The notes under the pieces were generated by a model that saw only the letters and a program-made list of their open reading frames with translations, was not told the origin of the DNA and did no database searches. DNA of 64,000 nt from Pseudomonadota bacterium (GTDB lineage Bacteria > Pseudomonadota > Alphaproteobacteria > Rhizobiales > Beijerinckiaceae), in the NCBI GenBank assembly GCA_023386155.1, contig JAEWKH010000066.1, positions 94,719 through 158,718 of the forward strand, given 5' to 3'. How positions within the stretch are numbered: the first letter of the stretch is position 1; the number at the start of each line of letters is the position of its first letter. A program made the position numbers and the translations under genes. This document shows, in pieces, positions 18,221 to 35,655 of the stretch.

Positions 18221-18691
18221 ATGCGCAGTCTCGATAAGGCAATTCTCGATGAAATCCTTACGAAGAGAGATACCCTCGGCGGTATTGATGCCGCATCCTG
18301 TGTGGATGATCTCTGTCGGTGGTGGAACGCGAACGCCCCGTCCGAGCGGACGGGAGCCACGCATATCGGCGTTTACATTGAGACCGATAGCGTCTGCCGG
18401 AATGTCGACCAGCAGGATCGCACGTTCAGGTTCGCGCATCAATTCGAATCCGCCGGATCTTCGGCCCGGTGCGGCGACATCGTCCTTGAATTCAGGCGTG
18501 CCGAGGAATGCGGCCCAAATGACTACGTATCCTTCGATCTCGCAGGGAATGCTATCGAGTCCAACAGACACGGTTCTGAGCGGTTCAGGCAATGGTCCGA
18601 CCAGGCTATGGAATGCCTGGTGTTGCTACGTGGCCGGTTCGGGAGACACGACAAGGAAGGTTGCAAGGCGTACATCCCGCACGTGGAATAG
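18221..18691 (+). CDS. hypothetical protein (coding strand uncertain)
   Basis: The plus-frame product from ATG 18221 (MRSLDKAILDEILTKRDTLGG...) has a balanced composition. Over 18362-18590 I counted GC3 of about 67% for this frame against about 58% for the codon-aligned antisense ORF 18131..18592. No family recognised. Confidence 0.3.
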   Translation: MRSLDKAILDEILTKRDTLGGIDAASCVDDLCRWWNANAPSERTGATHIGVYIETDSVCRNVDQQDRTFRFAHQFESAGSSARCGDIVLEFRRAEECGPNDYVSFDLAGNAIESNRHGSERFRQWSDQAMECLVLLRGRFGRHDKEGCKAYIPHVE

Positions 18692-19537
18692 CATTGGGTT
18701 TCCGGCATCCTGCTCTCCGAGAAAGAACAGATGCACACGTTCGGCACGGTTCGCATTCACGAGCTCACGTTGCACGGCCAGCATGCGCTTGAGCTCGTTC
18801 ACGAACCCTATCCGGCGTCGTGGCGACCATTCCGATATGTGGAACAGCACCCGGTAGCTCTCCGCTGGCATCATCCGCCCGGTTTCGGCATTGCGTTCCC
18901 AACGGACCGCATTGAGGTCCATCTCTGCCGCGAGAGGATCGTCTATAGGCTCCATCCGCGGTCTGCGGAAGGAGATCTCCGAGTGATACACCTTGCAGGA
19001 TAGTGGAACCGGACGGGACAGGTTTGCAAGTTTCCCAAAGCAGGTATTGTAGGTAGTTCCGTCGCATCCCGGTATGTTCAGTGGCCTCTCCCTGCCGTCC
19101 GGGAATGATACGTAGCATTCGGCGATCCTGTGGAGAGTCGTAGCAGTCTGGTCACGCTCAGGGGTATCATTCGACCCCTGTCGATTGCGCCGTTGTACTC
19201 CTTCCGGGTCAAGTTCTGGGATCCGGATCTGCGGAATACCTTGAGGCCTATGCTCGATGAGCCGAAGACGTGTCGGTTGAAGCGCGGCGTGATGCCTTTG
19301 GATTCCAGGTCTACCAGACTGGAGCCCTATCACGATCTCGCATTCGGGGCCATGGCTCCCTTCGATCCGGAAGTGGGGCGCAACCCGGTAGACACGGGCT
19401 CCGTCGGCAGCCACTGCAGTCATCTGGACACCACAATCCGGGCATTCCCAGTCTGCATTCCGCAATTCCGGAGATGCCGGCAATTCCAAGATGGAGTGAC
19501 AATCCCTTGTTTCTTGGTTCCGTGCGATGTCAGGCAC
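18626..19537 (-). CDS. hypothetical protein with N-terminal Zn-ribbon-like motif
   Basis: 303-aa ORF. A hand count over 19081-19140 gives the highest GC (about 75%) at its third codon positions. The pattern WECPDCGVQMTAV...APHFRIEGSHGPEC resembles CxxC...H...C zinc ribbons. It lies 157 nt downstream of, and co-directional with, the cNMP/TIR-like gene. Confidence 0.45.
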   Translation of the reverse strand: MPDIARNQETRDCHSILELPASPELRNADWECPDCGVQMTAVAADGARVYRVAPHFRIEGSHGPECEIVIGLQSGRPGIQRHHAALQPTRLRLIEHRPQGIPQIRIPELDPEGVQRRNRQGSNDTPERDQTATTLHRIAECYVSFPDGRERPLNIPGCDGTTYNTCFGKLANLSRPVPLSCKVYHSEISFRRPRMEPIDDPLAAEMDLNAVRWERNAETGRMMPAESYRVLFHISEWSPRRRIGFVNELKRMLAVQRELVNANRAERVHLFFLGEQDAGNPMLFHVRDVRLATFLVVSPEPAT

Positions 19538-19694: not shown

Positions 19695-20606
19695 CTAGAT
19701 GTTTCTGCCAAGCGCCATGATGTGATCCCGGAGCTCATTGCACGCTGGACTGATGAGTGCAGCAACATTTTGCCCCTTTTCATAGCGGTAACGGATCGAG
19801 GTAATCCCAGCCAAGTCACTGGGGAGTTTCACCTTGGTCCCTTGCGGTTCCATGAGGATGGCGCGCTGCCGTCCGAGCCGCCCCATGAAAAATCCCAGCT
19901 CGAAGATCACATTGTCCCGTGGGGTCGGCCAGTCCTCGTCCCGGATGTTCGTCGTATCGTCAGGGTGAGCCACTGCCACCGCGAAGTCGGACTGTTCCAA
20001 CTCCTGTTCGAGGCTCTCAAGGGTGTAGTTGGTAACCCGAAATACGCCATTGCTCCACACCATCGTCAGAAAAGGATCATGGGCGAAGGCGTTGTCGATA
20101 GCTCTGGCGATATGCAAGGACTCCACTGACGAAATCACAAAAACCCTGATCTTCTCGTTGGGAGGCCTGATTAGGGCGTTGCGCTGCTCGAGTCGGCGGG
20201 ACAGCTCCTGGGCGATGCGTCTCCAGATTTCCGGGTAGCGCGTTGCGATTTCCGAGAACTTTTCCTCGCCGACCTTGAGGACCAGGGCATCGCCATCGGC
20301 AACCAGGGTCGCGGAGCGTTTTTGGGTCGGCGAAATGGCAGCCATCTCCCCGACGTGATCGCTCGGATACCGGGTAGCAATCCTCTTGCCGTTGACCACG
20401 ACGCCGAACGTGCCGGAGATGATGAAGTACACGTCATTATCGGAGGCTGCCTGCTCGATGAGAGCCTCCCCCTGCCGCACCGCGCTTAGAGTGCCAACCT
20501 CGACCAGTGCCTCAGCCGCACCAGGTATGCCGAGAACGATCTTCTGCTTGCGCACCTCGTCAAATAGCAGACTTTTTCCGCGGTCGCCTGAAAATCTATC
20601 GATCAT
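19695..20606 (-). CDS. cyclic-nucleotide-binding domain fused to a TIR-like (CAP12 / pfam10137-type) effector domain; Pycsar PycTIR-like
   Basis: The N-terminal CAP_ED has YFIISGTFGVVVNGKRIA...HVGEMAAISPTQKRSATLVA. The C-terminal half has KIRVFVISS...NVIFELGFFMGRLGRQRAILM, typical of the predicted nucleotide-binding TIR-like family. Its ATG overlaps the upstream stop (ATGA). Confidence 0.8.
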   Translation of the reverse strand: MIDRFSGDRGKSLLFDEVRKQKIVLGIPGAAEALVEVGTLSAVRQGEALIEQAASDNDVYFIISGTFGVVVNGKRIATRYPSDHVGEMAAISPTQKRSATLVADGDALVLKVGEEKFSEIATRYPEIWRRIAQELSRRLEQRNALIRPPNEKIRVFVISSVESLHIARAIDNAFAHDPFLTMVWSNGVFRVTNYTLESLEQELEQSDFAVAVAHPDDTTNIRDEDWPTPRDNVIFELGFFMGRLGRQRAILMEPQGTKVKLPSDLAGITSIRYRYEKGQNVAALISPACNELRDHIMALGRNI

Positions 20607-21409
20607 GATACTCTTCCGTTTTTCGCGGCGTCAGCGGCGGCCCGTGTCCCGGCGGACATGCCTTCCGAACCAACGCTTAGTGGACATTTGCGCATAGAGC
20701 CGCAGCAGGGTGTTCTCGAGACCAGATGCGACTTCCAGTATTCGGCCTCGGCCTTCCGGCGTGCGCGCTCGGATACCACCAAGGTCACGATAGCAGACTT
20801 GTTGCAACAGGAGCGGCGAAGGATCAGGCGGCCGCGACGGTCGGTGCATCCCTTGGGACAACAGGCACGGCCGTTCACGAGGCGTGAGCCGTCTCTGCTG
20901 GCTCGGATGGCCCCGGCGCTGAACCAGTGCTTCTCGCCCTCGATCATGCGCTGGTAGCTCTCCTCGAGACCAAGCTCTTTCGCTGCAGCCAATGCAGATA
21001 CGTGATGGGGTCCTGCGGACCCGTGTGACAGGGCCTGAAGCGGAGGCCAGAGGCGGGTGCGGGCGGCGACTCGTTGTAGCTTGAGGAATTCGAACAGAAG
21101 TCCCCACCACACATGAGCGGAGTCGATATCGGAGACGAGTTTCTCCGCGCCTAGAGTGAGACAGAAGCTGCTATCATCGTTGACGTGACGTTCTGGACAG
21201 AAGCCCGGGAATGCGGTTCCGGGAATCGTCTCACGAATGACAAGTCCCCGAGGCTCCTCCGACAGTGTCAGGGCAACACTGAAATTCCTGGATGCCCCGG
21301 GGATTTCGATTTCCGCAACGCCTGAGACGCTGCGATCGTCCTGCCCGGTTATGATAAACCAGGCCGGCACGACCGAATGAACCAGTGCCAAACGTTGCGG
21401 ATCGGTCAT
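20603..21409 (-). CDS. E2/UBC-like protein with Cys-rich C-terminal domain (functional call tentative)
   Basis: Coding is well supported: ATGA overlaps at both ends tie it into the operon. LVIRETIPGTAFPGFCPERHVNDDSSFCLTLG resembles the E2 HPN...Cys-Leu active-site strip. The C-terminal roughly 90 aa hold nine Cys (CCPKGC, SCCNKS, TPCCGSMRKCP). Confidence 0.45.
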   Translation of the reverse strand: MTDPQRLALVHSVVPAWFIITGQDDRSVSGVAEIEIPGASRNFSVALTLSEEPRGLVIRETIPGTAFPGFCPERHVNDDSSFCLTLGAEKLVSDIDSAHVWWGLLFEFLKLQRVAARTRLWPPLQALSHGSAGPHHVSALAAAKELGLEESYQRMIEGEKHWFSAGAIRASRDGSRLVNGRACCPKGCTDRRGRLILRRSCCNKSAIVTLVVSERARRKAEAEYWKSHLVSRTPCCGSMRKCPLSVGSEGMSAGTRAAADAAKNGRVS

Positions 21410-23043
21410 CGAGCGTAGGCCTTGGCTTCGACCGCAAGCTCACCGCTCTTGACGACAAGCGGAGCCGCAAGGTGTGCGGTAACAGCATCGTAATCGAGGC
21501 CGTGGGCTTTGCCGTCGTCGACAAAGAGTCGCTTGATCCCGGGCGGGGCGCTATTCAGGGCGCGCGGGCCGAGCGCCGTCTCGTCACCCTCGCAGGTGGA
21601 CTGCAATGCCTCGGACGCACTGATTGCCTTGCTAACCGAGCACCTCACGCTTTTATCACCTCGAATGCCGAGGCGCGTGATGGGAGTGGTTCCGTACTCG
21701 ATGCCGATAGCGAGGCCGAGTTCCTTCACGTTGGGCAGTTCGTCCTGACACAGCTCGAAGCTCGATCGCATTCCGGCAGCTGCCTCGACGGCCGCGGTCA
21801 CTGTCGCCGACGCTTCCGTATTGTCCCGCGTTCCTTTGGCGAGAAGACCGTGGACGCAATCGCCGATGAAGCGTACCTTGCGGCCCGAAAAGTCTTCCTT
21901 CAGCGTCGCGGCGAGTTCGTTCCTGATCACATGCAGGTTCGCGACCATTTCCGCGACGCGCCCGGTGCGAATGCAGTCGGTCACGTAGTTGGTGAAGCCG
22001 GCAATGTCCGCAAAGATGGATGTCAGCTCCATTCGTACCGAGTGTGACGGCGACAGTTCTCGGAAATCGATCGTCTTGAGCGGCGGCGTGTGGCGATGAA
22101 ACGTGAAGGTCGGCAAGGAGCCATCGGTGACGCTCAGACGCTTCTCGACGGCTTCGGCAAAGCGTGCGACGGCTTCGTCGCTTGCCCGGCTGCTTCCGGA
22201 AAGTCCGAGGATGGGTACAGCGCCGTAAGCAAAGGAATGCATCCGCTCGTTGACAAGTCCACCTACCGCACCGAGCCCGAGGTCTCTTCGAACTTGATCG
22301 CTGGGGTAAATGCCCTCCACGTCGCCTTCTGCGAGCTTCGCGGCATAATTTGCCGGATTGCCCAGGAACAGGGGCTCCGGCTCGTTGCTCCGTCCACTGT
22401 TCACAGCGACAGCCGTTCCAGCATCCATCCCGATGCGCACCCGGGTTCTATAGAGGCCGCCGCCGACGCTCCGGCTGGTTTCCTCAATGGTCCGCTTCAA
22501 GGCGTCGGCGAACTCAAGCGCACGGACAGCCCGCTCCTTTGCCTTGTCTGGGCCTGCAGGGGACACAATGACCGCATGCATCCTAGCGCCATGGTAGTCG
22601 ACACGCTGGGCTTCGTACTCTTCAGCGACGCGATCGCACCCGGAGTAATGGAGGTGCAACATCGACAGGGCGCGCGCGTGGCTTGCCTCGGTCTCGCGTT
22701 CTTGCTCCAGCATTGTCGTCGCAAAATCGAGGAGTTGAACATAGACGTGAACGCCCTCGACAATGACAGCCTCGCTGGGCCGGACGCTGAAAATGAGGTC
22801 CTCTCTGGCTCCGCCCTTCGCGTGGAGGGATGCAATTTCCGAGCGACGGCGGACCATGTCCGCCGTCGAGAATGTCCGGACGTTAACCAGCCCCTGAGGG
22901 ACTGTGCCCTTGAACTGACGGATCCGTGCAAGGCTCTTCTGTCGTGACCAGCTCATTAGTGACCTCAAGGTAGCAAGCTGTTGGCTCTGATCCGTCGCGG
23001 GGTTCGTTTCGGCATCGGAGATTGCTCCATAGGCTTTCTTCAA
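21406..23043 (-). CDS. class III nucleotidyl cyclase with two tandem cyclase-homology domains (Pycsar PycC-like)
   Basis: The C-terminal domain has SIFADIAGFTNYV...VRFIGDCVHGLLA...AIGIEYGTTPITRLG. The N-terminal domain is a degenerate copy: VHVYVQLLDFATTM...YHGARMHAVIV...RIGMDAGTAVAVNSG. TTG start at 23043, with GGAG 9 nt upstream. Confidence 0.8.
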   Translation of the reverse strand: MKKAYGAISDAETNPATDQSQQLATLRSLMSWSRQKSLARIRQFKGTVPQGLVNVRTFSTADMVRRRSEIASLHAKGGAREDLIFSVRPSEAVIVEGVHVYVQLLDFATTMLEQERETEASHARALSMLHLHYSGCDRVAEEYEAQRVDYHGARMHAVIVSPAGPDKAKERAVRALEFADALKRTIEETSRSVGGGLYRTRVRIGMDAGTAVAVNSGRSNEPEPLFLGNPANYAAKLAEGDVEGIYPSDQVRRDLGLGAVGGLVNERMHSFAYGAVPILGLSGSSRASDEAVARFAEAVEKRLSVTDGSLPTFTFHRHTPPLKTIDFRELSPSHSVRMELTSIFADIAGFTNYVTDCIRTGRVAEMVANLHVIRNELAATLKEDFSGRKVRFIGDCVHGLLAKGTRDNTEASATVTAAVEAAAGMRSSFELCQDELPNVKELGLAIGIEYGTTPITRLGIRGDKSVRCSVSKAISASEALQSTCEGDETALGPRALNSAPPGIKRLFVDDGKAHGLDYDAVTAHLAAPLVVKSGELAVEAKAYAR

Positions 23044-23172: not shown

Positions 23173-23493
23173 ATGGTTGCATTATTCGGAGAACGGATCC
23201 GGGAGTTGAGAAAGAAAAAGGGCATGACCCTTGATCAACTCGCCGTCGCGACCGATTCCAGCAAAAGCTACATCTGGGAACTGGAAAACAAGGACCCGCC
23301 ACGTCCTTCGGCGGACAAGATTGCCAGGATCGCGACCGCGCTTGATGTCACCGGGGATTACCTGATGGGTACTGCTGACGTGGACCTGCAATCGGCCGAA
23401 GATGAGGCCTTCTTCCGAAAGTATAGTCAAATGACGCCGGAGGCCCGTGCTAGGCTCCGGAAGCTCGCAAAGGCACTCGACGAGGATGATTGA
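23173..23493 (+). CDS. XRE-family HTH regulator (CapH-like position)
   Basis: FGERIRELRKKKGMTLDQLAVATDSSKSYIWELENKDPPRPSADKIARIATALDV is a canonical XRE HTH. Its stop overlaps the start of the ImmA/IrrE gene. Confidence 0.85.
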   Translation: MVALFGERIRELRKKKGMTLDQLAVATDSSKSYIWELENKDPPRPSADKIARIATALDVTGDYLMGTADVDLQSAEDEAFFRKYSQMTPEARARLRKLAKALDEDD

Positions 23494-24389
23494 TGGATGC
23501 GGGGCAGGGGCCTGAAGGTTGGGCGATCAAGCTCACCAAGATGCTGGATTTCGTCTATGGAGACGGTCCGGAGCGCTATCCCGTCAAGGTCGACCAGTTG
23601 GCTCTGGAATACTCCGCCCGCGCATACCCCGATGCTCCAATCAAAAAGGTCCTTGCCGACGATCTTGATGGGTTCGAAGGCGCCCTGGTTTCGGCGCAAA
23701 AGTCAGGAGCTTGGGGTATTCTTTACGACAAACGCCAACGTCCCGAGAGGGCCCGGTTCACGATTGCTCACGAATTCGGTCACTATCTCCTACACCGCCA
23801 CATGAGCCGTGAGGGCTTCCGGTGTGGAGAGGAGCAGGTGAGCAGACGCGAAGGCGTTGGCATTGAAAAAGAGGCCGATACGTTTGCGGCCTACCTCCTG
23901 ATGCCGTTCCACGATTTCCGGGCTCGCATCCCACCCAACAGCAAACCGACGCTTGAGGAGCTTGGAGCCTGTGCTCAGTGTTATGGTGTCTCTCTTACGG
24001 CTGCGATCCTGCGCTGGCTCGAATATACGGAGCGCCGTTCGCTGTTTGTTGTTTCGCGGGAAGGGTTCGCGCTGTGGGCTAAGGCAAGTGACTCGGCTTT
24101 CAAGTCCGGCCGCTTCATCAGGACGCGCAATACGACCTATGAACTTCCACCCTCGGCCCGTTGTGTACTTGGCCCTTTGAATACCGAGGCCCGCAGTGGC
24201 ATATCCCATCCGGCCGGCGTGTGGTTCGACGAGCCAGTAGAAGAGATTTCCATAGCGTCTGAGGAACTGGATATGGTTCTAACGCTTCTTCACCTTGGTC
24301 CGCCGCCAGAGAAGCGCTGGGAACGGAGAGAGGACGGCGAAGGCGTTGAGAGCGGTCTCACTTCCAGCCGTAGGCGTCCGTTCCGTTGA
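23493..24389 (+). CDS. ImmA/IrrE-family zinc metallopeptidase (CapP-like position)
   Basis: FTIAHEFGHYLLH (HExxH), followed by EKEADTFAAYLLMP, is typical of pfam06114 (DUF955). The ATG at 23493 shares one nucleotide with the upstream TGA. Confidence 0.85.
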   Translation: MDAGQGPEGWAIKLTKMLDFVYGDGPERYPVKVDQLALEYSARAYPDAPIKKVLADDLDGFEGALVSAQKSGAWGILYDKRQRPERARFTIAHEFGHYLLHRHMSREGFRCGEEQVSRREGVGIEKEADTFAAYLLMPFHDFRARIPPNSKPTLEELGACAQCYGVSLTAAILRWLEYTERRSLFVVSREGFALWAKASDSAFKSGRFIRTRNTTYELPPSARCVLGPLNTEARSGISHPAGVWFDEPVEEISIASEELDMVLTLLHLGPPPEKRWERREDGEGVESGLTSSRRRPFR

Positions 24390-24614: not shown

Positions 24615-25514
24615 ATGTCGGAAACGCTTTATATAATCGGGAATGGTTTCGACCTGCACCATGGTATTCGTTCCTCGTACAAGGAATTCGGCGCCTATCT
24701 GAAAGCCCGTGACCGGGAAACCTACAATGTCATGGAGCGCTATTTCGACGTTGACACGGACTTTTGGGCTGAATTTGAGGGCAGACTCGCCTCCTTCGAT
24801 AGCGATACGCTGATAGAGGACACGTCCTGTTTTCTAGTGAGCTATAGCGCAGAGGACTGGAGCGATTCGTTCCATCATGACTACCAGTATGAGATCGACG
24901 AGACTATCAAAGCGATATCGACGACGCTTCGAGCGCGGTTCGCCGAATGGATCCGGCAGCTCCGCATTCCTGATAGATCAGAGATCGCGAGCCTGCGGGT
25001 GCCTTTGGATCCGTCTGCAACCTTTCTGAACTTCAACTACACGCCATCGCTACAGCAACTCTATGGCATCCCTGATGCTCGTATCCGACATATTCACGGG
25101 GCGGCGAGTGATCCGGACGCACAGCTTGTCCTAGGACACGGTTGGGAGCCGGAGCCTCAGCCTGATCCCTATCGCTTCTCAGGCGATCCTGAGGACGCAG
25201 ATACACGGGTCGTCGAAGGTCAAAGAATTATCGACAGCTACTTCAGAGACACCTTCAAGCCGACTGCAAATATTATTCAAGCCAACGCCGCCTTCTTTGC
25301 AAGCCTGTCGCAGGTTGAAAGGATCTTTGTGATGGGGCACTCGATTTCCAGCGTTGATCATCCATATTTTAACGAGATAATACGCAACATCGATGCCACC
25401 CGCGTACGGTGGAAGATCAGCTACCGTGATGGCATCGCGGAACTTCAAGAGCGCGTGAAGATGGTCGGCATCGCTCTAAATCAAGCCGAGTTCGCGCATC
25501 TTCCGGATTTTTGA
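24615..25514 (+). CDS. AbiH-like abortive-infection family protein
   Basis: The N-terminus MSETLYIIGNGFDLHHGIRSSYKEF matches the AbiH family signature (IIGNGFDL-HGL-T-Y-F). 299 aa. Confidence 0.65.
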   Translation: MSETLYIIGNGFDLHHGIRSSYKEFGAYLKARDRETYNVMERYFDVDTDFWAEFEGRLASFDSDTLIEDTSCFLVSYSAEDWSDSFHHDYQYEIDETIKAISTTLRARFAEWIRQLRIPDRSEIASLRVPLDPSATFLNFNYTPSLQQLYGIPDARIRHIHGAASDPDAQLVLGHGWEPEPQPDPYRFSGDPEDADTRVVEGQRIIDSYFRDTFKPTANIIQANAAFFASLSQVERIFVMGHSISSVDHPYFNEIIRNIDATRVRWKISYRDGIAELQERVKMVGIALNQAEFAHLPDF

Positions 25515-25587: not shown

Positions 25588-26631
25588 ATGGCGAAACATC
25601 CTCCGAAGATCTTTCTAGACGCCAACATTGTCATCGGTGGCGGCAAGCCGCCGGGCGGCCCTGAGCTCGCGCGGGTGATCGACTTGGTCGAGGCAGGTCT
25701 CGTAACGGTATTGACGACTGATCTCACCATTACCGAGGTTGCAAAAAAACACGTGCAGAATGACCTTGATCTGATCCGAGATATTTGCCAGCCGCACTTC
25801 CGCAAAACAGTGGAGTTCGCAACAGGAGCCAAACTTCCGGAGATCAAACGGGCAGAGTTGAAGCGAAGGCTAAGTGAAGCCTATGAGGCTTCGACCAAGT
25901 CCATGTTCAGGAATTTAAGAGCGAAGACGCTAGCGATCGATAACGTCAAGCCGTCTGTCGTGTTCGACGCCTATGCTGCTGGCGAGGGGTTTTTCTCAAG
26001 CGAGGGAAAGAAAAACCAGTTTCCGGATGCATTCACATTCGAGTGCTTGAAGCAGGAGGCCTCAGAAGAGCCGGTCATCATTGTCACACAAGATGGTGAC
26101 TTCGTGAAGCCGGCCCGAGCCGAGAAGAACATCACGCTGGTGAAGTCGCTGCCTGAGTTATTCGAAAAGCTCGGCCTGGAAATGCAGGTGCCGGAGATAG
26201 ATGCTTTTCTAGAGGATCACAAGGACGAACTCATCGAAGAAGTCGACCGAGAGCTTTCGAATTGGACATTGCAGGGCGATGTCGAAGACTCAGAGATCGA
26301 TGAAACGATAGTGACCGAAGTAGAAGTTCAAAACCTAACAGCCTTTAGGCCGACGGCAAAGGGAGACCCGATCTTGGTTATAGGGAGGCTAGCCGTGAAG
26401 GCGAACGTTTCCTACACGCATCCGAATTGGGATGAAGCCATATACGACTCTGAGGACAAGGTCCTCGTCCCCTTTGAAGACGTAAATGGTGAGACTGAGG
26501 TCGATTTGGAGATTGACGTGTCGATGTCGCTCTTGGTCGGCGATGATGGAGAGCCGGAGCAAATTGACGAACTACGTTTTCGAAACGACAATTTCGTCTA
26601 TGTCACGCTCCACCCATACGACTACGACTAG
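25588..26631 (+). CDS. PIN-like domain protein (DUF4935-type) with an acidic C-terminal domain of unknown function
   Basis: KIFLDANIVI (first acidic residue), LTTDLTITEV and VIIVTQDGDF (distal acidic residues) follow PIN-fold spacing. The C-terminal half is highly acidic and unassigned. Confidence 0.55.
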   Translation: MAKHPPKIFLDANIVIGGGKPPGGPELARVIDLVEAGLVTVLTTDLTITEVAKKHVQNDLDLIRDICQPHFRKTVEFATGAKLPEIKRAELKRRLSEAYEASTKSMFRNLRAKTLAIDNVKPSVVFDAYAAGEGFFSSEGKKNQFPDAFTFECLKQEASEEPVIIVTQDGDFVKPARAEKNITLVKSLPELFEKLGLEMQVPEIDAFLEDHKDELIEEVDRELSNWTLQGDVEDSEIDETIVTEVEVQNLTAFRPTAKGDPILVIGRLAVKANVSYTHPNWDEAIYDSEDKVLVPFEDVNGETEVDLEIDVSMSLLVGDDGEPEQIDELRFRNDNFVYVTLHPYDYD

Positions 26632-27516: not shown

Positions 27517-29412
27517 CTAAACGTTCGCGAGAGTTTTGTTTTGTCTCGAGTACTTAGGGCCGACTAAATATTCGCTGTCTTCAAGCTCTGGCGCCAACAT
27601 AGAAGTCGTGAAAATTATTTGATGAGGAAATTTCGCCCTCTTTGATTCCTCGATGACCAATCTTTGATAATTGTGGCTGCGGGCTGGTTCCATTCCCTTA
27701 TCTTCAATGTTGTCCATCAAAAGAAATTTGGGATGCCAGAACTCCGCATCGTAGCAGGCTGCTATCAAGAGGGAGAGGATCGCTGTGTTTTTTAGGATGA
27801 CGTTGCTACTCTCCGCGAAATTCATCTTCCCATCGACAAGCATCGCATCATCGCCGAAATTTACAGAGAATGTTGATGGGCGCTCAAAAACGTCCTCTCG
27901 GCTCAAATCCTTCGTTAACAAGCGCCTGCCGATAATACTTACGGATCCCATCGCTTTGTTAGTGCGCGCCATCGAGGCCTCCTCCAGACGCTTCAGGCGC
28001 GCCTCGAGCCTCTCAATTTCATCGTTTAATGTCGCGCGAGACCGTGAGAGTTCGTCAAGCTTCTCGATAGCAGCCCTCAGCTCCTCCAAGTAAGCCGCCT
28101 CGCGCTCCAATCCGCCCAGACGCTTGTACCGTTCCGCAAGGAAGCTCTCGCGTGGCGAATTGCTAATATCATATCGGCTGGAGAACTCTGTAATTGCTGA
28201 TGCGTACTCACGTCGGAGTCCGCGAATGTCGCTTTGAAGATCTTCGAACTCCGCGGCCTTCGATTTGAGAAGCTGTCGTGACTCCCGAATTTGCAACTCG
28301 TTATCTATCTTGATCTCAAAGTATTTCGACTTCGCCGCTTCTTCATCGATCACCTCATGACAAACCACGCAGTGCTTGGCATCGACATCCGAGAGAGGTT
28401 TCAGGCAAGCAGGGCAATATTGAAATTCGATACTTCCCAGCTTCTCAGATAGCTCGTCGGCAGCATTCAATGATTCGAGCTGTCTTTCCAAATGATCGAT
28501 GAACCCCTCAATCTCAGCCCGCTCATCGGTGAGATCCGTCGCGAGCTGCTCCTTTTCCTGCATGACATTGGCCAACTTTCGTACTCGGGCCTGCATCGAG
28601 CGGCGCTCAGAGATGAACTTTTGGGTCTGTTCTTCTCCTACGTAGGCATCAATATCTGAAACCTCAGCGATGATTGCATTTTTCTGCTGCGCAAGGCTAG
28701 ACATTCGTACGTCGAGGGCTGCAACGGACGTCAAGCCGTCTGCCGATGGCAGCGCCATCAATGCGGCGTTGTATAGCTTATCCGTATCAGTATATTTTGA
28801 TTTCAGCTCACGTAACCTGATTAGGCCTTCATATAGCTCATAGCCATTCACGCCAATCAATAGCTGGCCAACCGCCTCGCGAATATCCCTCGTATCAAAC
28901 CCCTCAAATCGGAACAGCTTTCCGGCCGGGGTCTGCTGATCTGCGTAAAGCAGGCGCAAAATCTGATGCATTGTGATATTAGAATTGGCGACGTTCGGCG
29001 CCTCAGGAATACCCGCCGCGCGAAACAGAACCTGGGTAAATGAGAGATCCCTCCCACCTTGAGGACGCCGTATTGGCACCATCTGCCAATGATCGATGCC
29101 TTTGTTCTGCGACTCCTCTAGGTTGCCGTAGTAAACGAATATTGGCTCCTGTTTTGTGCCGACATTACGATGAACAGTCAGAGTGGCTTGATTGGTCTCA
29201 ATCTCAAGACGGACTGCCGTGCATTTCTTAGCCGCATCCTTCCATCTGTCGAACTCTCCGCCTAAGCCGAAGAATACAAAATCTGATATGGTCGATTTTC
29301 CCGAGCTATTCTCACCGCGAATGATATTCACACCGCGATGAAAACGCTCGTCGTATGCGATCTCACGACCTCGCGTCACTTGAACCCGCTTTAGCGCAAA
29401 AAAGGTAACCAC
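27517..29412 (-). CDS. SMC/Rad50-like ABC ATPase with coiled-coil insert (ABC-3C system ATPase)
   Basis: Walker A NIIRGENSSGKST. Long heptad-rich middle region with the pattern CPACLKPL...CVVCH. Walker B-like FLLMDNIEDKG. GTG start 3 nt after the upstream stop. Confidence 0.8.
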   Translation of the reverse strand: MVTFFALKRVQVTRGREIAYDERFHRGVNIIRGENSSGKSTISDFVFFGLGGEFDRWKDAAKKCTAVRLEIETNQATLTVHRNVGTKQEPIFVYYGNLEESQNKGIDHWQMVPIRRPQGGRDLSFTQVLFRAAGIPEAPNVANSNITMHQILRLLYADQQTPAGKLFRFEGFDTRDIREAVGQLLIGVNGYELYEGLIRLRELKSKYTDTDKLYNAALMALPSADGLTSVAALDVRMSSLAQQKNAIIAEVSDIDAYVGEEQTQKFISERRSMQARVRKLANVMQEKEQLATDLTDERAEIEGFIDHLERQLESLNAADELSEKLGSIEFQYCPACLKPLSDVDAKHCVVCHEVIDEEAAKSKYFEIKIDNELQIRESRQLLKSKAAEFEDLQSDIRGLRREYASAITEFSSRYDISNSPRESFLAERYKRLGGLEREAAYLEELRAAIEKLDELSRSRATLNDEIERLEARLKRLEEASMARTNKAMGSVSIIGRRLLTKDLSREDVFERPSTFSVNFGDDAMLVDGKMNFAESSNVILKNTAILSLLIAACYDAEFWHPKFLLMDNIEDKGMEPARSHNYQRLVIEESKRAKFPHQIIFTTSMLAPELEDSEYLVGPKYSRQNKTLANV

Positions 29413-29415: not shown

Positions 29416-29922
29416 TTACGTCCCCATTCTTCTCAATCCGGTGACCGAACGCAGGCCGCCCTTCCCGTTGCCAATTGTGTTGAATGCGGTTGTAAGAAAT
29501 TCCAAGACTGGCCCCTCCCCGGGCAAAATTAGTTGGGAGCCAAGCTCAGACACGATCCGTTGACCCTCAAGGCTCAGCTGATATTGATCCCTATCGACAA
29601 GAGCAATTTTGAATAACCCTTTGCCGACGAGGTTGTGCAATGCCTGAACTTGTATGCCACCCATCCTGCTGTAGAGAATTGGCGGGGATGGGTATTTCAG
29701 AAAACAATCGTTAGGCTTTGGGACTTTCAACTCATTGAATGCACGTCGAACGTCCGCGCTCATATGGGTCTGATGTAAAAGGCTTGGATTTGCGAGGTAA
29801 AAGTCGGATACAAAGAGTCGATCTCGATCCGGTGCTTCCATTGACCAGCGACTAAGTATTGCTAAGTACCGCCTAGCAGTGTCAAAAACATCAAGCTGCG
29901 AATACCAAAGACGATAGCTCAT
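29416..29922 (-). CDS. ABC-3C middle-component-like small protein
   Basis: 168 aa. ATGA overlap with the upstream hydrolase gene, and directly followed by the ABC ATPase. Position and size match the middle component of ABC three-component systems. No catalytic motif seen. Confidence 0.5.
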   Translation of the reverse strand: MSYRLWYSQLDVFDTARRYLAILSRWSMEAPDRDRLFVSDFYLANPSLLHQTHMSADVRRAFNELKVPKPNDCFLKYPSPPILYSRMGGIQVQALHNLVGKGLFKIALVDRDQYQLSLEGQRIVSELGSQLILPGEGPVLEFLTTAFNTIGNGKGGLRSVTGLRRMGT

Positions 29923-31118
29923 GGCTTATCCCAACGCACGTGGCACCGCTCTGTCAGAAAATACAGTGCGTTCATGATTGTCTTCGCGGTCGCTTTTTGG
30001 GCAGAATATTTCTGCGATAGTGGTTCGACGATATGGGTCTGGATCGCGAGGGAGACAGCTGCATCATCGGCACCATTGCAAATGAGCGGGTGGTATATCA
30101 GCGCTTGAAAGCGCTGTTCGATATCCGCAAGAAGGCTGTTGTAGTGCCCATTCGGACCAGATTTAAGGCCCGTTTGAATGAAACTACGAGCAAACCTGTT
30201 TTGCGACTCGTTCGCGAACGGATATTCGTGTTCGCGTCCAGCAGCTACCATCTTTGTCAGCAGGTCTCGTCGATCTCCAGCACTTTCGACTCCAAGATCG
30301 TCCTCATCAAAAAGCCCCGCCTCCTCGTCTGCCCCAAAAGACTGCGGAGGCAATAGGTTTTTGAGACGACGTTTGATGCTGAGATAAACTACGCTGCTTC
30401 GATCCGTAGGTTTACATATGGTGATGTGGTCAGCATCAATTCCGATTGGCATTACAGCGTTTACGCCTGGGTCGGCACTTGATGGATCGACGACCAGCGC
30501 AACTTTCGCCGTCTTGTGCATTTCGTGGTAGACAGTGACCGCGATTGCCCCCCGCTGGCAGTGCGTTCTGAAGCTTGCGTTTAATTCATCTAGCTCTGAG
30601 CTATCTTTTATTAGCTTCGTGACGTGATGTGACGCGAAGCAGCCAGAAAACATTTTCAGTAGATCGGCTAAGCTCGATCCGCTGTGAGGTGTCGCCAGAA
30701 AAAAGATCCCCGCACAGCTATCGGCTACTCTATTCCAATTCTCATCTGGCGACTCCTTCGCCGTTCTGAGAATTTGCTTCACTAGAAGCCCACCAAGGCT
30801 GTGGCATATGAAGACAAGGGGCTTAGTCCCCAACTCATAGGCGGCCATTGTTTCGAGAACGTTCTTCGCTCGGTCGTAGAGATTCATTTCTTTCTTCGCC
30901 CATTTGGCGAAGATGCTGGCTGGATACCCAAGCGTGTAAAAATTAAGGTGAGGCAGATCAACGGCCAACCATTTAGGCCAGTAGGGTCCTTCGGGCTCCG
31001 ACGTCTTATCCGAAGACCACGTGGTCAAGGGGTCCCCTGTCAAACCATGTACGAAGATCACATCCGCGCAGCCGCAATTAGCTGCAATGGTGGCAAAAAG
31101 GGTTGACGGCGTCGACAA
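29919..31118 (-). CDS. alpha/beta-hydrolase (serine esterase/lipase-like) effector with C-terminal helical domain
   Basis: VIFVHGLTGDPLTTW (oxyanion region), FICHSLGGLLV (GxSxG-type nucleophile elbow) and FLATPHSGS. The C-terminal roughly 150 aa are unassigned. Confidence 0.75.
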   Translation of the reverse strand: MSTPSTLFATIAANCGCADVIFVHGLTGDPLTTWSSDKTSEPEGPYWPKWLAVDLPHLNFYTLGYPASIFAKWAKKEMNLYDRAKNVLETMAAYELGTKPLVFICHSLGGLLVKQILRTAKESPDENWNRVADSCAGIFFLATPHSGSSLADLLKMFSGCFASHHVTKLIKDSSELDELNASFRTHCQRGAIAVTVYHEMHKTAKVALVVDPSSADPGVNAVMPIGIDADHITICKPTDRSSVVYLSIKRRLKNLLPPQSFGADEEAGLFDEDDLGVESAGDRRDLLTKMVAAGREHEYPFANESQNRFARSFIQTGLKSGPNGHYNSLLADIEQRFQALIYHPLICNGADDAAVSLAIQTHIVEPLSQKYSAQKATAKTIMNALYFLTERCHVRWDKP

Positions 31119-31724
31119 GGATGGCTCGTTCTATCGGGACAGGAACACAACCCTAGATGATTAACACCTGATTTCAAGCTGGTCTCACCCGGACAATTAA
31201 CTCCTCAACAGCCTAGGTATACTTACGATGGTCGAGAACGGCTAAGCTATCACTGTTGTCATCGCTAGCGGGTTTCTCCCAGTCGTGTGCATCGGTTACC
31301 GTTTCCAGTGCCCGAGACGATTTCGGCCTCTGTCGTGCCTTTTCTAATCAATGCCTCCGCCGACTTCCGAGCGATGGGCCCTGCTATGAGAAACAGTCAG
31401 ATCGAGCACGCCATCCAGTTCAATGCGGTTCCCATTCCCGAGCGGACATACCTTAAACAGACGCAATAGAGCCGTTCACGTCATCTCTGATGTTTCAGCA
31501 TACCGCATCGCAGGGAGTCCACCAAATGCCAAGCGTAACAACCCACAGTTTCCCATCGACTTTTTTAAGACGCTCGCATTAGAGGCAATATGTGTCCTCT
31601 TAGAGCGTATTTTTACGTATAAGAGGACAACATTGGCCTGTTAGCGAGCCATCGCATTTCACAAAAATCCTTGCTTCTGAGCCTTCAGAACACCTGCGAG
31701 GGATTTTCGCTGTTTCGACAAGAG

Positions 31725-33254
31725 TCAGTGGTTCACGTTACGTAAGTTCAACGCAGCCTCAATCATCCTCCTCAATGTCCGCAATGAACCACCTTGCCAT
31801 GTTTCCTGGATGGCCTCGGTTTCGGAGGGGTCGAGGGGAATGAGCCAGCGCTGGTCCAATCCCTGCTCGGCAAGCATATCGATCATGATCTGACGGCTCA
31901 GCATCGGCAGATCCTCCTGCCGCGGCTCGGGAAAGTTGAGGACCCGGCAGCGGTCGCGCAATGGACGGGAAACGCCGTCGAGCGAATTGGCTGTCATCAG
32001 CCACGAAACATGGGAGATGTCGCAGGGCGCCTGAATATAAGGGTCGTGATAGCGGCACGCCGTCTCCCGCTCGAGAAACGACAGCAAGGCGTCATGGGCA
32101 TTTCCGTTGTGCCGGGAGCTTCCGACCTTCTCGATCTCGTCTAGAATAATGCCAGGCCCCGCGTTCTTGCATCGGCCGATCAGCGCAACAGGAAGCGACG
32201 GCTCCCCTGTGCTCCAGCGGCGAGGCGTCCCGGCAAACGTGCCATCCGACAGACCGCCGCAAGAGATCACGTCGTGCGGCATGCCAATCAATGTCAGGAG
32301 CCTGCGAGCGAACCGCGACTTCCCGCATCCAGGCGGGCCGACCAGGATCGTTGGGCGGAGTTGGATATGGGGTTGGACTGGAATGTCCGCGAGGATGCGA
32401 TTGATCACTTGCTCCGCATACGGAAACTCGGACCTCAATGCAGTTCGAATGCCCGCGATGTCCGGCATCGGCACGAGCGGCAGCGGCTCTTTGAGAAGCG
32501 CCTTGTACTCCTCCGCAACTTTCTTGCCTTCTCCCGTATTCCCATTGCCTACCTGCTGAAACACGACAGCCGCAGGACCTATCGTGAGCGGCGCCGGTAG
32601 AGTTGGAGGTTGCGCTTCCGCCTTTGGAGGCGACAGCGGATCGCGCTTGATCATGCCCAGGAGGCTGCGGCTTCGATCGTCCACCCCATGGAGGGAAGCC
32701 CAGAAAACATCGCGTCGGACAGGGGCAAGGTAGGTGAATGCCGGGTTGGCAGCGGCAAACGACAGCCAGCCGAGTGCGGCACCAATCAGTTCCACCGCCT
32801 CGTTCCGTGACCCTTCGATGATCTCCGGCGCCGTCGCCATCGTGATCACGTCCTGCGCCAACGCCAGCGCAGCCTGGTGATCGTACATGTGAGCGAGGTA
32901 GATCCGGCATCGCAGCTGCCAGGACTTGGAGTCGGATGGCAGATTGTCCGAAGCGGCGGCGAGCGCATCCGCCAGCTCCCGAACCTCTTCGATCCCGGCA
33001 TTGCCGACCAGACGCTCCAGGGCCCGCACAACGCGCGCCTTGGCTCGATAGCCCGGCTTGCCACGCATCTGCGGCAGCAACCGTTCGGCGAAGGTCTGCA
33101 TGTCTTGCTGAATGCTGTCGGCGCAGAACGGCATCCCATGGATGAGCTCATCCACCATCGGCAGGTGACGCCCCTCCAGAGCGGCGCGGGACCGCCGCTC
33201 GAAGTGACGGCGGTCAGCCTCATTCCAGCGCCTCTTGAACCTTGGCGACGACAT
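31725..33254 (-). CDS. AAA+ ATPase (Lon-type AAA module without protease domain)
   Basis: Walker A LVGPPGCGKSRF, Walker B GIILDEIEKV and the sensor region PLRDRCRVLNFPEP, resembling the Lon AAA+ module. The long N-terminal domain is unassigned. Confidence 0.8.
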   Translation of the reverse strand: MSSPRFKRRWNEADRRHFERRSRAALEGRHLPMVDELIHGMPFCADSIQQDMQTFAERLLPQMRGKPGYRAKARVVRALERLVGNAGIEEVRELADALAAASDNLPSDSKSWQLRCRIYLAHMYDHQAALALAQDVITMATAPEIIEGSRNEAVELIGAALGWLSFAAANPAFTYLAPVRRDVFWASLHGVDDRSRSLLGMIKRDPLSPPKAEAQPPTLPAPLTIGPAAVVFQQVGNGNTGEGKKVAEEYKALLKEPLPLVPMPDIAGIRTALRSEFPYAEQVINRILADIPVQPHIQLRPTILVGPPGCGKSRFARRLLTLIGMPHDVISCGGLSDGTFAGTPRRWSTGEPSLPVALIGRCKNAGPGIILDEIEKVGSSRHNGNAHDALLSFLERETACRYHDPYIQAPCDISHVSWLMTANSLDGVSRPLRDRCRVLNFPEPRQEDLPMLSRQIMIDMLAEQGLDQRWLIPLDPSETEAIQETWQGGSLRTLRRMIEAALNLRNVNH

Positions 33255-33269
33255 ACGGCGTCACCCGCC

Positions 33270-33611
33270 TCAGGATGCAGGTGTAACGGACAGCGGCCGT
33301 CCGAGGCGGTACCATCGGGAGATGGTCCGAGCCCATCCCTGCTCTTCGTTCAGCACCCACAGGTCCGAGGTCATGACTGGCTGACCCACTCCCGTCAGGC
33401 GCGGATGCCCGAAGGCGTGGCCCACCAAGCAGAAGGCTGGCCGGCGCTCGCGGCTCCAGCCTTCGAGAAAGGGCGCATCGGCGAGGTCGGCATCGGTCGG
33501 TCCGCGTCCGTCCCGGATGCTCGTCAGATCAACGGCGAGCCGTTGCAGCCGTTCGATCTCGAGGGTGGCATCCGCCAGGTTCAAGGGTCTGGCTGCGGTG
33601 ATCGTGAACAT
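33270..33611 (-). CDS. small conserved hypothetical protein (possibly DUF6634; family name is from memory and unverified)
   Basis: 113-aa ORF between the ParA-like and AAA+ genes on the same strand. It contains LVGHAFGHPRL...TSDLWVLNEEQGWARTISRWYRLGRP. Confidence 0.5.
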   Translation of the reverse strand: MFTITAARPLNLADATLEIERLQRLAVDLTSIRDGRGPTDADLADAPFLEGWSRERRPAFCLVGHAFGHPRLTGVGQPVMTSDLWVLNEEQGWARTISRWYRLGRPLSVTPAS

Positions 33612-33737
33612 GGATTCCTCGGAAGTTATGTGATCTGTGTCAAAGGCATTGAGTGCATTGGTGGGAGTGAAGCGTCGGTCGGAAATGCGCCTTCGGGAAG
33701 GGCGATGGAGATCGGGAGAAGCGAAGGACCCGTCGCC

Positions 33738-34463
33738 TCACTCCGATGTCGATCCGGCGACCGAGCTGTCGTAGGGGAAGTGTATCGAGGGTGCTTCACC
33801 GTTGGCGCGCAGAACAGACTCCGCGAGCCTTGTTGCGGCATCCTGCTGCTGCTCGGTCAGGGCGAAGCGGTTCGCATCATCCCGGAAATCGAGATCGAGC
33901 GGGTCGAGGCTGGGAACTCCCGGATGGATGACGGACAGTGCCGGCACATATCCCGGCTTGAGGCCCCGCCGGGACAGGATGTCAGTGTAATCCTTGGCCC
34001 TCAGGCTCGAGGGCCAGCCAACAGGAAGGATCCAGACTTTCGGAAAGGGATCGTCGGACGTACTCGCTTCCTCCTGGATCACGTGCAGATCATAAATGAA
34101 CCGCTCGATCTCCTGCACGCCGTCGCGCATCGGAAGAAGGATTCGTGCTTTTGCGCCCATGGCGTAGGCGAGCACCTTCCGGATCGGCTGCGCAGGGGTG
34201 TCGATGATGATGTGAGAGTGTGCGGCACCACGGGACGAGCTTGCGTCGAGAACAGCCTCGACCGCCTTCATAGTGCCGCTGTGCGTCCAGACGACTGCGA
34301 ACGGAAGCCCTTCGATCCTGCTGAGGGAAGGCGGCGTGCCGTCTGGAACGAGCTGGACGTGAACCGGGGAGAAGCCCAGTTCGCGGAGCCCTGCCACCAG
34401 GAGAATGCTCGAAACCGTGCGGGCGCTTCCGCCCTTGGATCCTGCAAAGATGAAGACACTCAT
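33738..34463 (-). CDS. ParA/MinD-like protein with a variant P-loop
   Basis: The N-terminus MSVFIFAGSKGGSARTVSS aligns with the deviant Walker A KGGxGK(T/S), but has Arg in place of the second Lys. 241 aa. Confidence 0.55.
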   Translation of the reverse strand: MSVFIFAGSKGGSARTVSSILLVAGLRELGFSPVHVQLVPDGTPPSLSRIEGLPFAVVWTHSGTMKAVEAVLDASSSRGAAHSHIIIDTPAQPIRKVLAYAMGAKARILLPMRDGVQEIERFIYDLHVIQEEASTSDDPFPKVWILPVGWPSSLRAKDYTDILSRRGLKPGYVPALSVIHPGVPSLDPLDLDFRDDANRFALTEQQQDAATRLAESVLRANGEAPSIHFPYDSSVAGSTSE

Positions 34464-34626
34464 AACGTTCCCAGATTGGAGCGCGGCGGGCCGCTGATTC
34501 GCTCCAGGCTTATCGCAGTCGAGGATTCCTTGCTAGCTTTTTGGCCCTCTTCGGGCCATTTATTTGCCAATAGGGGCCAAATGTTGACAAGCTGGCTTTC
34601 CCGCTTAGCGCGTGCACATTCGCGCT

Positions 34627-34860
34627 ATGAGCCCCAATCCTAATCTCCTGAAAGCAGCACGAATTGCGCTTGGACTGAACCGGGAAGAATTGGCTGCAAT
34701 CGCAGGAGTCGGTGAGCGTTCCATTAAGCGAATGGAGGCCGGGCCGCCTGATCAGGCCCTGCGGACACAGAGGGCCGTCCAGAAAGCTCTCGAGGGGATG
34801 GGAGTTTTGTTTCTGGGCTCAGATGAGAACTACGGCCCTGGCTTTAGAATCCCAAAGTGA
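34627..34860 (+). CDS. small HTH (XRE-like) DNA-binding protein
   Basis: LLKAARIALGLNREELAAIAGVGERSIKRMEAG is an HTH. Divergent from the ParA-like gene. ATG at 34627 is preferred. Confidence 0.65.
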   Translation: MSPNPNLLKAARIALGLNREELAAIAGVGERSIKRMEAGPPDQALRTQRAVQKALEGMGVLFLGSDENYGPGFRIPK

Positions 34861-35164
34861 CTTATTAGTGAACCAGGGATAGAACCCCTGTCCCAAAGCC
34901 AAAACATTCAACTCGTCGGCAACGACGAACGGCGCTGTTGAGTCCAGCCATCTTGATCCGGACCTGTACACAGGAGCAGGCCGGCTACAGCGCTATTGAG
35001 GGGCGCGCCGGCCTGCTCCTATGCACAGCTCCTAGCGCCCGAGGGTCTCGGAAGACAGCTTACAGGGTAAGCCGAAACTTCCAAGATCCCTATCTGGCAT
35101 TGGCGTCTGAAGCTGTTTCGTGCCTGTTGCACCCGAGATAAACTCAAGCGCAATACCTGCGAAA

Positions 35165-35440
35165 CTAGCCGGCCATCCCAAGAGCCTGCATGTAAAGCTC
35201 GAGAATAGCTTCCTGCTCCTGCCGTTCCGCAAAATCCTGCTTGCGAATGCGTAGGATCTGCCTGATGGCCTTGGCGTCGAAGCCCCGCCCCTTCAACTCG
35301 GCGAAAACTTCCTTGATATCGCCGGCGACCCCGGCCTTCTCCTCTTCAAGCCTTTCAAGCCGCTCGATAAACTGCTTGAGTTCGTCCGCAGCGACGCTGC
35401 TCGTGTCGATTTCAGCATTTGGCATCGCATGCTGGTTCAT
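35165..35440 (-). CDS. gapR: GapR / DUF2312 nucleoid-associated protein (island-borne, full length)
   Basis: [69 protein letters not shown] matches the GapR/DUF2312 family along its whole length. AGGAGA RBS upstream. Confidence 0.85.
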   Translation of the reverse strand: MNQHAMPNAEIDTSSVAADELKQFIERLERLEEEKAGVAGDIKEVFAELKGRGFDAKAIRQILRIRKQDFAERQEQEAILELYMQALGMAG

Positions 35441-35451
35441 TGGTCTGTCTC

Positions 35452-35655
35452 CTAGCGGTTCGGTGTCACTGTCTGGAATATTCTCAAGGACCCATCAGGG
35501 TTCTTTCCGGGCTCCAGGCAACGTCCAATAAATTGATGCTCAAGTGGTCTATAGGCCACGTCAAGCCTGTGCTCCGACTCATTTCTGATTCGAATACGAA
35601 TCCCTTCAGGAACATCGTACAGAGCGTGTGATGAAGTCGAATTTGCCTTGTGCAC
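35452..35655 (-). CDS. hypothetical small protein
   Basis: 67-aa ORF ending 11 nt before the island gapR start. An AT-rich putative promoter lies upstream. No family recognised. Confidence 0.3.
   Translation of the reverse strand: MHKANSTSSHALYDVPEGIRIRIRNESEHRLDVAYRPLEHQFIGRCLEPGKNPDGSLRIFQTVTPNR

Follow-up and report, generated by a model that had tools for sequence, protein, structure and literature searches.

A cysteine-rich E2-like protein that accompanies PaPycC-type Pycsar cyclases and may act on the cyclase tail

What a protein resembling ubiquitin-conjugating (E2) enzymes might do between the cyclase and the effector of a putative antiphage operon is the question raised by a locus in the genome of a Pseudomonadota bacterium of the family Beijerinckiaceae. 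In this study, we analyzed a stretch of 64,000 nucleotides from that genome (GenBank assembly GCA_023386155.1, contig JAEWKH010000066.1, positions 94,719 to 158,718; the whole stretch is called the window below, and coordinates count from its first letter). The E2-like gene (20603..21409, (-) strand, ATG start), encoding 268 amino acids, stands second in an operon with the order cyclase, E2, PycTIR. The gene before it encodes a 545-amino-acid, two-domain class III cyclase, a PycC of the PaPycC (clade A) type (21406..23043, (-)), and the gene after it encodes a 303-amino-acid PycTIR effector that combines a domain for binding cyclic nucleoside monophosphates (cNMP) with a TIR NADase domain (19695..20606, (-)). 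The start of the E2 gene overlaps the stop of the cyclase gene by 4 nucleotides (ATGA) and its own stop overlaps the start of the effector gene likewise, so the three genes are probably translationally coupled. Judged by homology, the system is a Pycsar, an antiphage system built on a pyrimidine cyclase, of the PaPycC type. The cyclase matches the PADLOC PycC model (3.1e-180), Pfam Guanylate_cyc and, over residues 68-527, the PaPycC structure 6YII of the Protein Data Bank (PDB; 2e-78), and the effector matches Pfam cNMP_binding and CAP12-PCTIR_TIR, the PADLOC TIR effector model (6e-137) and the PycTIR structure 8jsj (1.1e-55). By the same homology to PaPycC, the cyclase product would be a cyclic pyrimidine and the function of the system phage defense. 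Collectively, our results indicate that the family of the E2-like protein, called E2-Crich below, probably controls the cyclase beside which it is encoded.

The E2 gene clearly belongs to a family that Pfam and PADLOC have already described. Residues 28-122 match PF20298 ("E2-ntca, prokaryotic E2 domain") at 72.9 bits against a cut-off of 27.5 (3.4e-20), residues 129-244 match PF20272 ("E2-Crich, cysteine-rich domain C-terminal to E2 domain") at 73.2 bits against a cut-off of 27 (3.6e-20), and the PADLOC 'E2' model PDLC00875 matches the protein over its full length (1.1e-86). Matches of this strength far exceed chance. The closest database match is at most 90% identical, and every one of 59 close homologues carries both Pfam domains. 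Among 1.84 billion representative proteins the family forms 479 clusters at 50% identity, and the best 150 of these 479 representatives are all stand-alone proteins of 116-315 amino acids. Homologues on plasmids appear at NCBI either as 'E2 domain-containing protein' or as 'E2 domain-associated cysteine-rich protein'; no phage homologues of the family and no near-identical DNA in plasmids were found. Our literature search for E2-Crich, E2-ntca, PF20272 and PF20298, the coverage of which was without Burroughs 2015 (NAR) and Tal 2021 (Cell), returned no mention of them. The window protein shares with the rest of the family both domains, the invariant residues and the gene context, and differs only by sequence divergence and by the tail motif of its cyclase, which is KAY and not RP[YH].

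A preliminary description made from the letters of the window had called the protein E2-like, and three lines of evidence agree with this: the score above the PF20298 gathering threshold, the order of predicted structural elements and the structural matches. An AlphaFold2 model was built on the 59 homologues. It reached a predicted local distance difference test score (pLDDT) of 93.5 and a second model 89.2, and in both the order of elements matches the ubiquitin-conjugating (UBC) fold, with alpha1 at residues 5-12, strands at 18-23, 27-34, 43-52 and 55-60, alpha2 at 95-118, alpha3 at 130-145 and alpha4 at 149-156. The long loop between the four strands (18-60) and alpha2 bears C71, H75 and C83. 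Past this UBC-like core (residues 1-160; 20930..21409, (-)), the model shows short beta-bridges, a long helix (204-230) and a CCGxMxxC loop. When the full model was compared with the PDB by Foldseek, CDC34 and others matched at E ~0.06 and SmE2, the E2 of a Serratia marcescens defense system discussed below (8hsb_B), ranked 10th. With residues 1-160 the top match was CDC34 (2ob4; E 6.7e-3, probability 0.99, template modeling (TM) score 0.44), E2 enzymes made up most of the top 50 matches, and SmE2 ranked 20th (TM 0.39, 17% identity). In the viral library, ranks 2 and 3 were a "Type II CBASS E2 protein domain" and a giant-virus E2. Because these scores are weak yet the list is dominated by E2 enzymes, the window protein is, on the predicted model, a strongly divergent UBC-fold protein. 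The alignment by hhalign with three human E2s is also weak and serves as a lead only (E 0.046, probability ~1%); it places C83 on Cys85. The window protein shares with eukaryotic E2s such as CDC34 and UBE2D2 alpha1, the four-strand meander, the loop with H-x-N and then C-L, and alpha2 to alpha4. It differs from them by a TM score of only ~0.44, by a spacing of five and not seven residues between Asn and Cys, by the additional invariant C71 and R74, near-invariant H129 and C-terminal Cys-rich module, and by the lack of a nearby E1 (ubiquitin-activating enzyme) or ubiquitin-like partner.

The loop that bears the candidate catalytic residues contains invariant positions. Conservation was assessed in the 59 database homologues and in 67 sequences from 76 genomes, with identity down to ~27%. 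The open reading frame is real and reads as the preliminary description quoted it: the stretch LVIRETIPGTAFPGFCPERHVNDDSSFCLTLG corresponds to residues 56-87, and H75-V-N77 is followed by five residues and then by C83-L84. In human UBE2D2, seven residues stand between N77 and C85. The active-site strip proper (P68 ... C71-P-E-R-H75-V-N77-D-D-S-S-F-C83-L, residues 68-86; 21152..21208, (-)) includes the codon of the candidate catalytic Cys83 at 21161-21163 (-). P68, C71, R74, H75, F82, C83 and Q112 are invariant in all 67 sequences, and E60, E73 (65/67), W101, W121, H129, G130, C184 (65/67), C201 (65/67), C235, C236 and C242 (66/67 each for these three) are conserved in at least 97%. The preliminary description had let its E2 reading depend on conservation of the Cys, the His and the Asn. 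H75 and C83 are invariant and position 77 is mostly Asn (N in 59 sequences, or 88%, Q in 7 and E in 1), so the reading withstands its own test. All of the family-conserved residues C71, R74, H75, C83, H129, C184, C201, C235, C236 and C242 are present in the window protein.

The Cys-rich module (residues 183-243; 20681..20863, (-)) had been described as holding nine cysteines within CCPKGC, SCCNKS and TPCCGSMRKCP, which are residues 183-188, 200-205 and 233-243. The count is eight (C183, C184, C188, C201, C202, C235, C236 and C242), and the protein has ten in total, C71 and C83 included. The module is indeed a recognized domain, PF20272, while only five or six of its eight cysteines are conserved; C183 and C202 are not. 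It is absent from the Cap2-like E2-E1 fusions beside sister cyclases, in agreement with the claim that Cap2 lacks it. The pattern of substitution in the module is of interest. At the first site, C184-x3-C188 alternates with C-x-C, the second Cys being C186 in other clades, and C201-C202 alternates with C-x(2-3)-H, the His being at +3 or +4 in other clades. Ligand swapping of this kind is typical of a four-ligand zinc knuckle. The alternating Cys/His patterns suggest that C184, C188, C201 and C202 are swappable ligands of one putative metal site, and C235-C236 with C242 would form a second putative cluster of three. We infer that the module binds metal, probably zinc.

The gene context of the family ties it to the cyclase. 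In 73 of the 76 genome loci the gene immediately upstream of the E2 gene encodes a homologous cyclase, mostly with a 4-nucleotide overlap, and the three exceptions are truncated genes or lie on short contigs. The effectors at these loci vary: PycTIR is encoded up- or downstream, and PycTM or a cNMP-binding cyclase is found at others. As the cyclase is constant and the effector variable, the E2 gene tracks the cyclase and not the effector. The same arrangement holds for the reference enzyme of this branch. PaPycC is a tandem-domain clade A cyclase reported as a synthase of cyclic uridine monophosphate (PMC11224242), and Pycsar has been presented as a cyclase and an effector, with no E2 included (PMC11224242, PMC9117128). 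Three Pseudomonas loci that encode TIR, cyclase and E2 have cyclases that match 6YII with 100% identity over a stretch of 164 residues. The PaPycC/PycTIR system (PDB 6YII; PMC11224242) and that of the window have in common the tandem-domain cyclase, the cNMP-binding TIR effector and, in Pseudomonas, the same three genes, whereas the order is TIR-cyclase-E2 in Pseudomonas and cyclase-E2-TIR in the window. On the Pseudomonas aeruginosa plasmid p382 (NZ_CP115292.1, our locus L077), pycTIR and pycC are annotated, and an intact E2-Crich reading frame of 257 amino acids (4938-5711, TTG start) overlaps the pycC stop by 4 nucleotides and scores 133.7 and 112.8 bits against the two Pfam models. The PLSDB gene table, known to have gaps, lists neither this reading frame nor several other plasmid matches. 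A match to E2-Crich is present in 22 of 28 plasmid records with a homologous cyclase, and one more record has the gene split in two. The split gene, on plasmid pMsp65 of Acinetobacter sp. NEB149 (L079, 4924-5681), is annotated as two overlapping reading frames, an 'E2 domain-containing protein' and an 'E2 domain-associated cysteine-rich protein'; it may have arisen by a frameshift or be a pseudogene, or else the gene is naturally divided where the two domains meet.

Homologous cyclases that lack E2-Crich carry another module in its place. They are followed by an E2-E1 fusion, usually with a JAB peptidase: a Prok-E2_B-ThiF fusion in Agrobacterium, a ThiF-domain fusion with a JAB peptidase, confirmed by Pfam, in Mesorhizobium, and a ThiF-domain fusion with JAB in Cupriavidus, the last by reading-frame sizes and a 0.21 tblastn lead only. 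Conversely, neither the window nor the surroundings (within 7 kb) of any E2-Crich locus among the 76 yielded a ThiF or JAB homologue. The two modules are mutually exclusive at the loci compared. In a neighbor-joining tree the three cyclases of the E1E2 type occupy three separate positions among those of the E2-Crich type, one of them as sister to the subclade of the window, which argues that E2-Crich and E2-E1/JAB modules have repeatedly replaced each other on the same cyclase scaffold. The architecture of cyclase, E2-E1 fusion and JAB has been described as type II Pycsar or 'Pycsar-like-4' (bioRxiv 10.1101/2024.11.21.623953; 10.64898/2026.08.12.744502). The window system shares with it the cyclase clade, the E1E2-type cyclases being 52-62% identical to those of the E2-Crich type and nested among them, and shares both with it and with Cap2-Cap3 of type II CBASS (antiphage signaling by means of cyclic oligonucleotides) an E2-family Cys enzyme that adjoins the synthase. 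It differs in that its E2, of 268 amino acids, belongs to PF20298 and not to Prok-E2_B, that this protein has no fused ThiF/E1 and no JAB in the window, and that the tails of E1E2-type cyclases end in ...GFS or ...RHA whereas those beside E2-Crich read [RKQ]P[YH]-x(2-11). The cyclases with E2-E1 fusions at L080 (3537-5117), L081 (3360-4913) and L078 (3501-5102) have tails ending in ...AGFS, ...DGFS and ...TRHA. The GFS ending, common to two unrelated genera, may be the C-terminus recognized by E1 in type II Pycsar.

If the E2 tracks the cyclase, then the part of the cyclase that it could act on is of particular interest. The cyclases extend 40-45 residues past the catalytic core, and these tails are variable save for two elements, AP-x-[IV] and, ~12 residues on, [RKQA]-[PAS]-[YHF]. 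The second element is mostly R-P-Y/H and is present in 74 of 75 cyclase tails beside an E2-Crich gene. After it come 2-11 unconserved residues in every case, four being the most common number. In 52 of the 68 distinct tails a P[YH] stands close to the end, whereas composition-preserving shuffles yield 2.9 +/- 1.6, a contrast inflated by relatedness, though the flanks of the motif vary. The window cyclase ends ...VVKSGELAVEAKAYAR, as the preliminary description stated; its last 20 residues, AAPLVVKSGELAVEAKAYAR (526-545; 21409..21468, (-)), include the motif as K541-A-Y543 (21415-21423, (-)). An apparent co-variation of APY tails with E2s that read CHERH[LI]Q is confounded by phylogeny and was dropped as evidence.

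A precedent for an E2 that acts on the tail of a signal synthase is found in E2-only (type II short) CBASS. SmE2 of Serratia marcescens acts without E1: C101 and H87 remove the residue after the conserved Gly406 of the synthase CdnG, a thioester is formed, and the CdnG tail is then passed to K159, so that cleavage is coupled to ligation (bioRxiv 10.1101/2022.05.25.493364; PMC12948482). The window system resembles CdnG-E2 (PDB 8HSB) in having a stand-alone E2 beside a synthase of a nucleotide signal and neither an E1 nor a JAB, in the conserved Cys and His of the E2, for which the fold match is weak, and in the C-terminal extension of the synthase, with a conserved motif and then dispensable residues. 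The two systems differ in that the partner is a CD-NTase (a nucleotidyltransferase of the cGAS/DncV type) in CBASS and the class III cyclase PycC in the window, that the window E2 has an additional Cys-rich extension of ~110 residues, and that 14 residues separate His from Cys in SmE2 as against 8 in the window E2. In addition, the tail site is a conserved Gly in CBASS and the [RKQ]P[YH] motif in the Pycsar family, the acceptor K159 of SmE2 contrasts with a family without an invariant acceptor Lys, and there is no detectable sequence homology between the two E2s.

These likenesses are the basis of a model in which E2-Crich would be the Pycsar counterpart of E2-only CBASS. In this model, E2-Crich would be a stand-alone, divergent UBC-fold enzyme fused to a probable zinc-binding Cys-rich module. 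The tandem-domain cyclase would make a cyclic mononucleotide, which would bind to the cNMP-binding domain of PycTIR and switch on the destruction of NAD+. The E2 would bind to its partner cyclase at the conserved C-terminal tail, and Cys83, helped by His75 and Asn77 and possibly by His129, would attack the peptide bond at or just after [RKQ]-P-[YH] without E1 or ATP. The short variable C-terminal peptide would be released and an acyl-enzyme formed, and the acyl group would then be moved to an amine or hydrolyzed, which would determine how active the cyclase is. In a reaction that lacks an E1 and activation by ATP, the sole route to a thioester would be attack on a peptide bond already present, and such an attack would need trailing residues as its leaving group. 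The analogy with SmE2, the invariant Cys and His, the strict association with the cyclase, the replacement by E2-E1/JAB modules and the trailing residues of the tails make covalent action of E2-Crich on the tail of its cyclase through C83 the best-supported reading, although we regard its truth as an even question. Our data show that the gene belongs to the family, what its fold class is, which residues are conserved, the obligate tie to the cyclase, the tail motif and the mutual exclusivity with E2-E1/JAB modules, whereas catalysis at Cys83, the tail as substrate and a priming or restraining effect on the cyclase are putative. The Cys-rich module may supply structural zinc, a clamp for the tail, a relay cysteine or a sensor. 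A bolder version, which we consider unlikely, would make E2-Crich a self-contained acyl-transferase for the [RKQ]-P-[Y/H] tail, independent of E1 and ATP, in which the zinc-bound module, perhaps through the vicinal C235-C236 pair, serves as a relay like that of E3 ligases of the RING-between-RING (RBR) class.

Several observations weigh against a covalent mechanism. The tails contain no conserved glycine across the family; the preliminary description had raised a Gly-proximal site for cleavage or conjugation as pure speculation, and the 'SG' of the window tail is confined to its own subclade. Its idea of conjugation was reasonable and needs revision, the [RKQ]P[YH] motif taking the place of a Gly site. 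One cyclase of the E1E2 type has S-P-Y at a roughly homologous place, aligned by eye, followed by a 16-residue extension, so the tail motif may be a docking and not a cleavage site. There is no invariant or near-invariant Lys in the E2 in either the 59 or the 67 sequences, which leaves the isopeptide step to an E2 lysine seen in CBASS with no obvious counterpart, and no cyclase-E2 fusion is found among the best 150 of the 479 family representatives. The similarity of fold is weak (TM 0.39-0.46, best E 7e-3). A profile search of the PDB by sequence gave no homologue, its sole match, a Rieske oxygenase, being chance (E 1.1), and hhalign yielded nothing for the family profile against the Cap2-like proteins from L078 and L081. 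Because of this last result, the strip PHVEDDGVLCL of L078, which resembles the active-site strip, is to be read as an anecdote. The literature search gave no biochemical evidence for any member of PF20298 or PF20272.

The lack of a tail Gly and of an E2 Lys is what would be expected of a non-covalent subunit, a regulator or sensor with an E2-like core that has lost catalysis and in which the invariant Cys and His join the C-terminal cysteines as ligands of one or two metal ions or of a redox-sensitive cluster; C83, for example, may be a ligand with C71, C235, C236 and C242. Such an E2 would clamp the tail and hold the cyclase inactive (or active) until it is released by a cue such as binding of a phage protein, the loss of metal or oxidation. 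There are eleven conserved Cys/His positions, more than one catalytic center needs, C71-x3-H75-x7-C83 can itself be read as a metal site, and Foldseek found nothing in the PDB that resembles the Cys-rich module; the P[YH] element in an E1E2-type cyclase also looks like a docking motif. However, C83 falls at the place of the UBC catalytic Cys by the order of secondary structure and by the weak hhalign alignment, and the comparable E2 in CBASS is a catalyst. The modules that this cyclase clade otherwise recruits, E2-E1/JAB, are catalytically complete, from which we argue that chemistry and not only binding is needed. We consider a purely non-covalent role, the chief alternative, somewhat unlikely. 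A distinctly unlikely alternative is that the E2 is a processing peptidase only, which would trim the tail once by hydrolysis of the acyl-enzyme and so mature or inactivate the cyclase, with no conjugation to lysine. The cysteine-protease activity of SmE2 is proven, the variable extensions of 2-11 residues past the tail motif and the lack of an invariant E2 lysine suit simple trimming, and no separate JAB peptidase is present at E2-Crich loci. Nevertheless, cleavage by SmE2 is coupled to ligation, and the sister systems use E1-E2 ligases, the job of which is conjugation. The UBC-like fold and the conserved Cys would also be those of a conventional E2 that is served by an E1 and a ubiquitin-like protein from genes located elsewhere and modifies phage or host proteins rather than the cyclase, as in Bil systems. 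This appears very improbable, as no E1, ubiquitin-like protein or JAB is encoded in the window or within 7 kb in the 76 loci, the gene is strictly linked to the cyclase gene and probably coupled to it in translation, and the family is confined to the cyclase context, apart from the truncated genes and short contigs mentioned above.

The usual account of Pycsar has two genes, a cyclase and an effector. Our analyses indicate that the PaPycC-type branch, with its crystallized reference enzyme, carries an overlooked, obligate third gene, E2-Crich, that is interchangeable in evolution with E2-E1/JAB modules. If the E2 acts on the cyclase tail, the way in which these cyclases are primed or held inactive would be accounted for. 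If the covalent model is true, the E1-independent chemistry of an E2 as protease and ligase would extend from CBASS to cyclic-mononucleotide signaling, and a recognition motif other than glycine would be defined. If the relay version is true, a ubiquitin-like conjugation that does without both an E1 and a Gly C-terminus would control a cyclic-mononucleotide immune signal. The window gene itself adds no new kind, and its value is that of a clean, complete example with capH/capP control.

That putative control is encoded next to the operon. A capH-like helix-turn-helix (HTH) regulator (23173..23493, (+); PADLOC capH 7.8e-32, Pfam HTH_31/HTH_3) and a capP-like M78 metallopeptidase regulator (23490..24389, (+); PADLOC capP 2.3e-67, Pfam Peptidase_M78) overlap each other by 4 nucleotides and are divergent from the cyclase-E2-TIR operon. 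Pairs of capH and capP also lie upstream of the operon at L002, L019, L022, L023, L038 and L068. Scans of the operon and of the intergenic region before capH for promoters, terminators and inverted repeats gave results no better than shuffled sequence. Judging from its neighbors, the operon lies in a defense island. A PD-Lambda-4_B-like protein (18626-19537, (-); 1.9e-24) is encoded on one side, and on the other are AbiH (24615-25514, (+); Pfam 6e-73), a PIN_12 protein (25588-26631, (+)) and a Lamassu/ABC-3C-like pair formed by an LmuB-like SMC/AAA ATPase (27517-29412, (-); 7e-37) and a DUF676 esterase with an ABC-3C CTD9 domain (29919-31118, (-)).

Many of the loci that lack a TIR gene encode a second protein with a cNMP-binding and a cyclase domain just upstream of the tandem cyclase, and this protein may be a signal relay or amplifier. 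Second cyclases of this kind are found at L002 (4247-5419), L005 (4233-5423), L019 (4381-5493), L021 (4156-5463), L063 (3995-5278) and L078 (2387-3490), and in L001 a PycTM effector is encoded downstream in place of the cNMP-binding cyclase. Several alphaproteobacterial loci lie directly downstream of a gene for a class II (B12-dependent) ribonucleotide reductase (1396-5187 in L001, 241-4077 in L005, 1023-4907 in L059, and also in L062-L064), which suggests a recurrent insertion site.

The base composition of the window changes along its length, the G+C content rising from ~50-55% over 1-31 kb to 62-74% over 32-64 kb, with the step at ~31000-36000. The step may be an island boundary or an assembly chimera. 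The operon, at ~60% G+C, is within the lower-G+C part. A 285-amino-acid reading frame (22090-22947, (+)) lies antisense inside the cyclase gene, and more long antisense reading frames occur in the high-G+C half; these are probably artefacts of GC-rich sequence and not genes.

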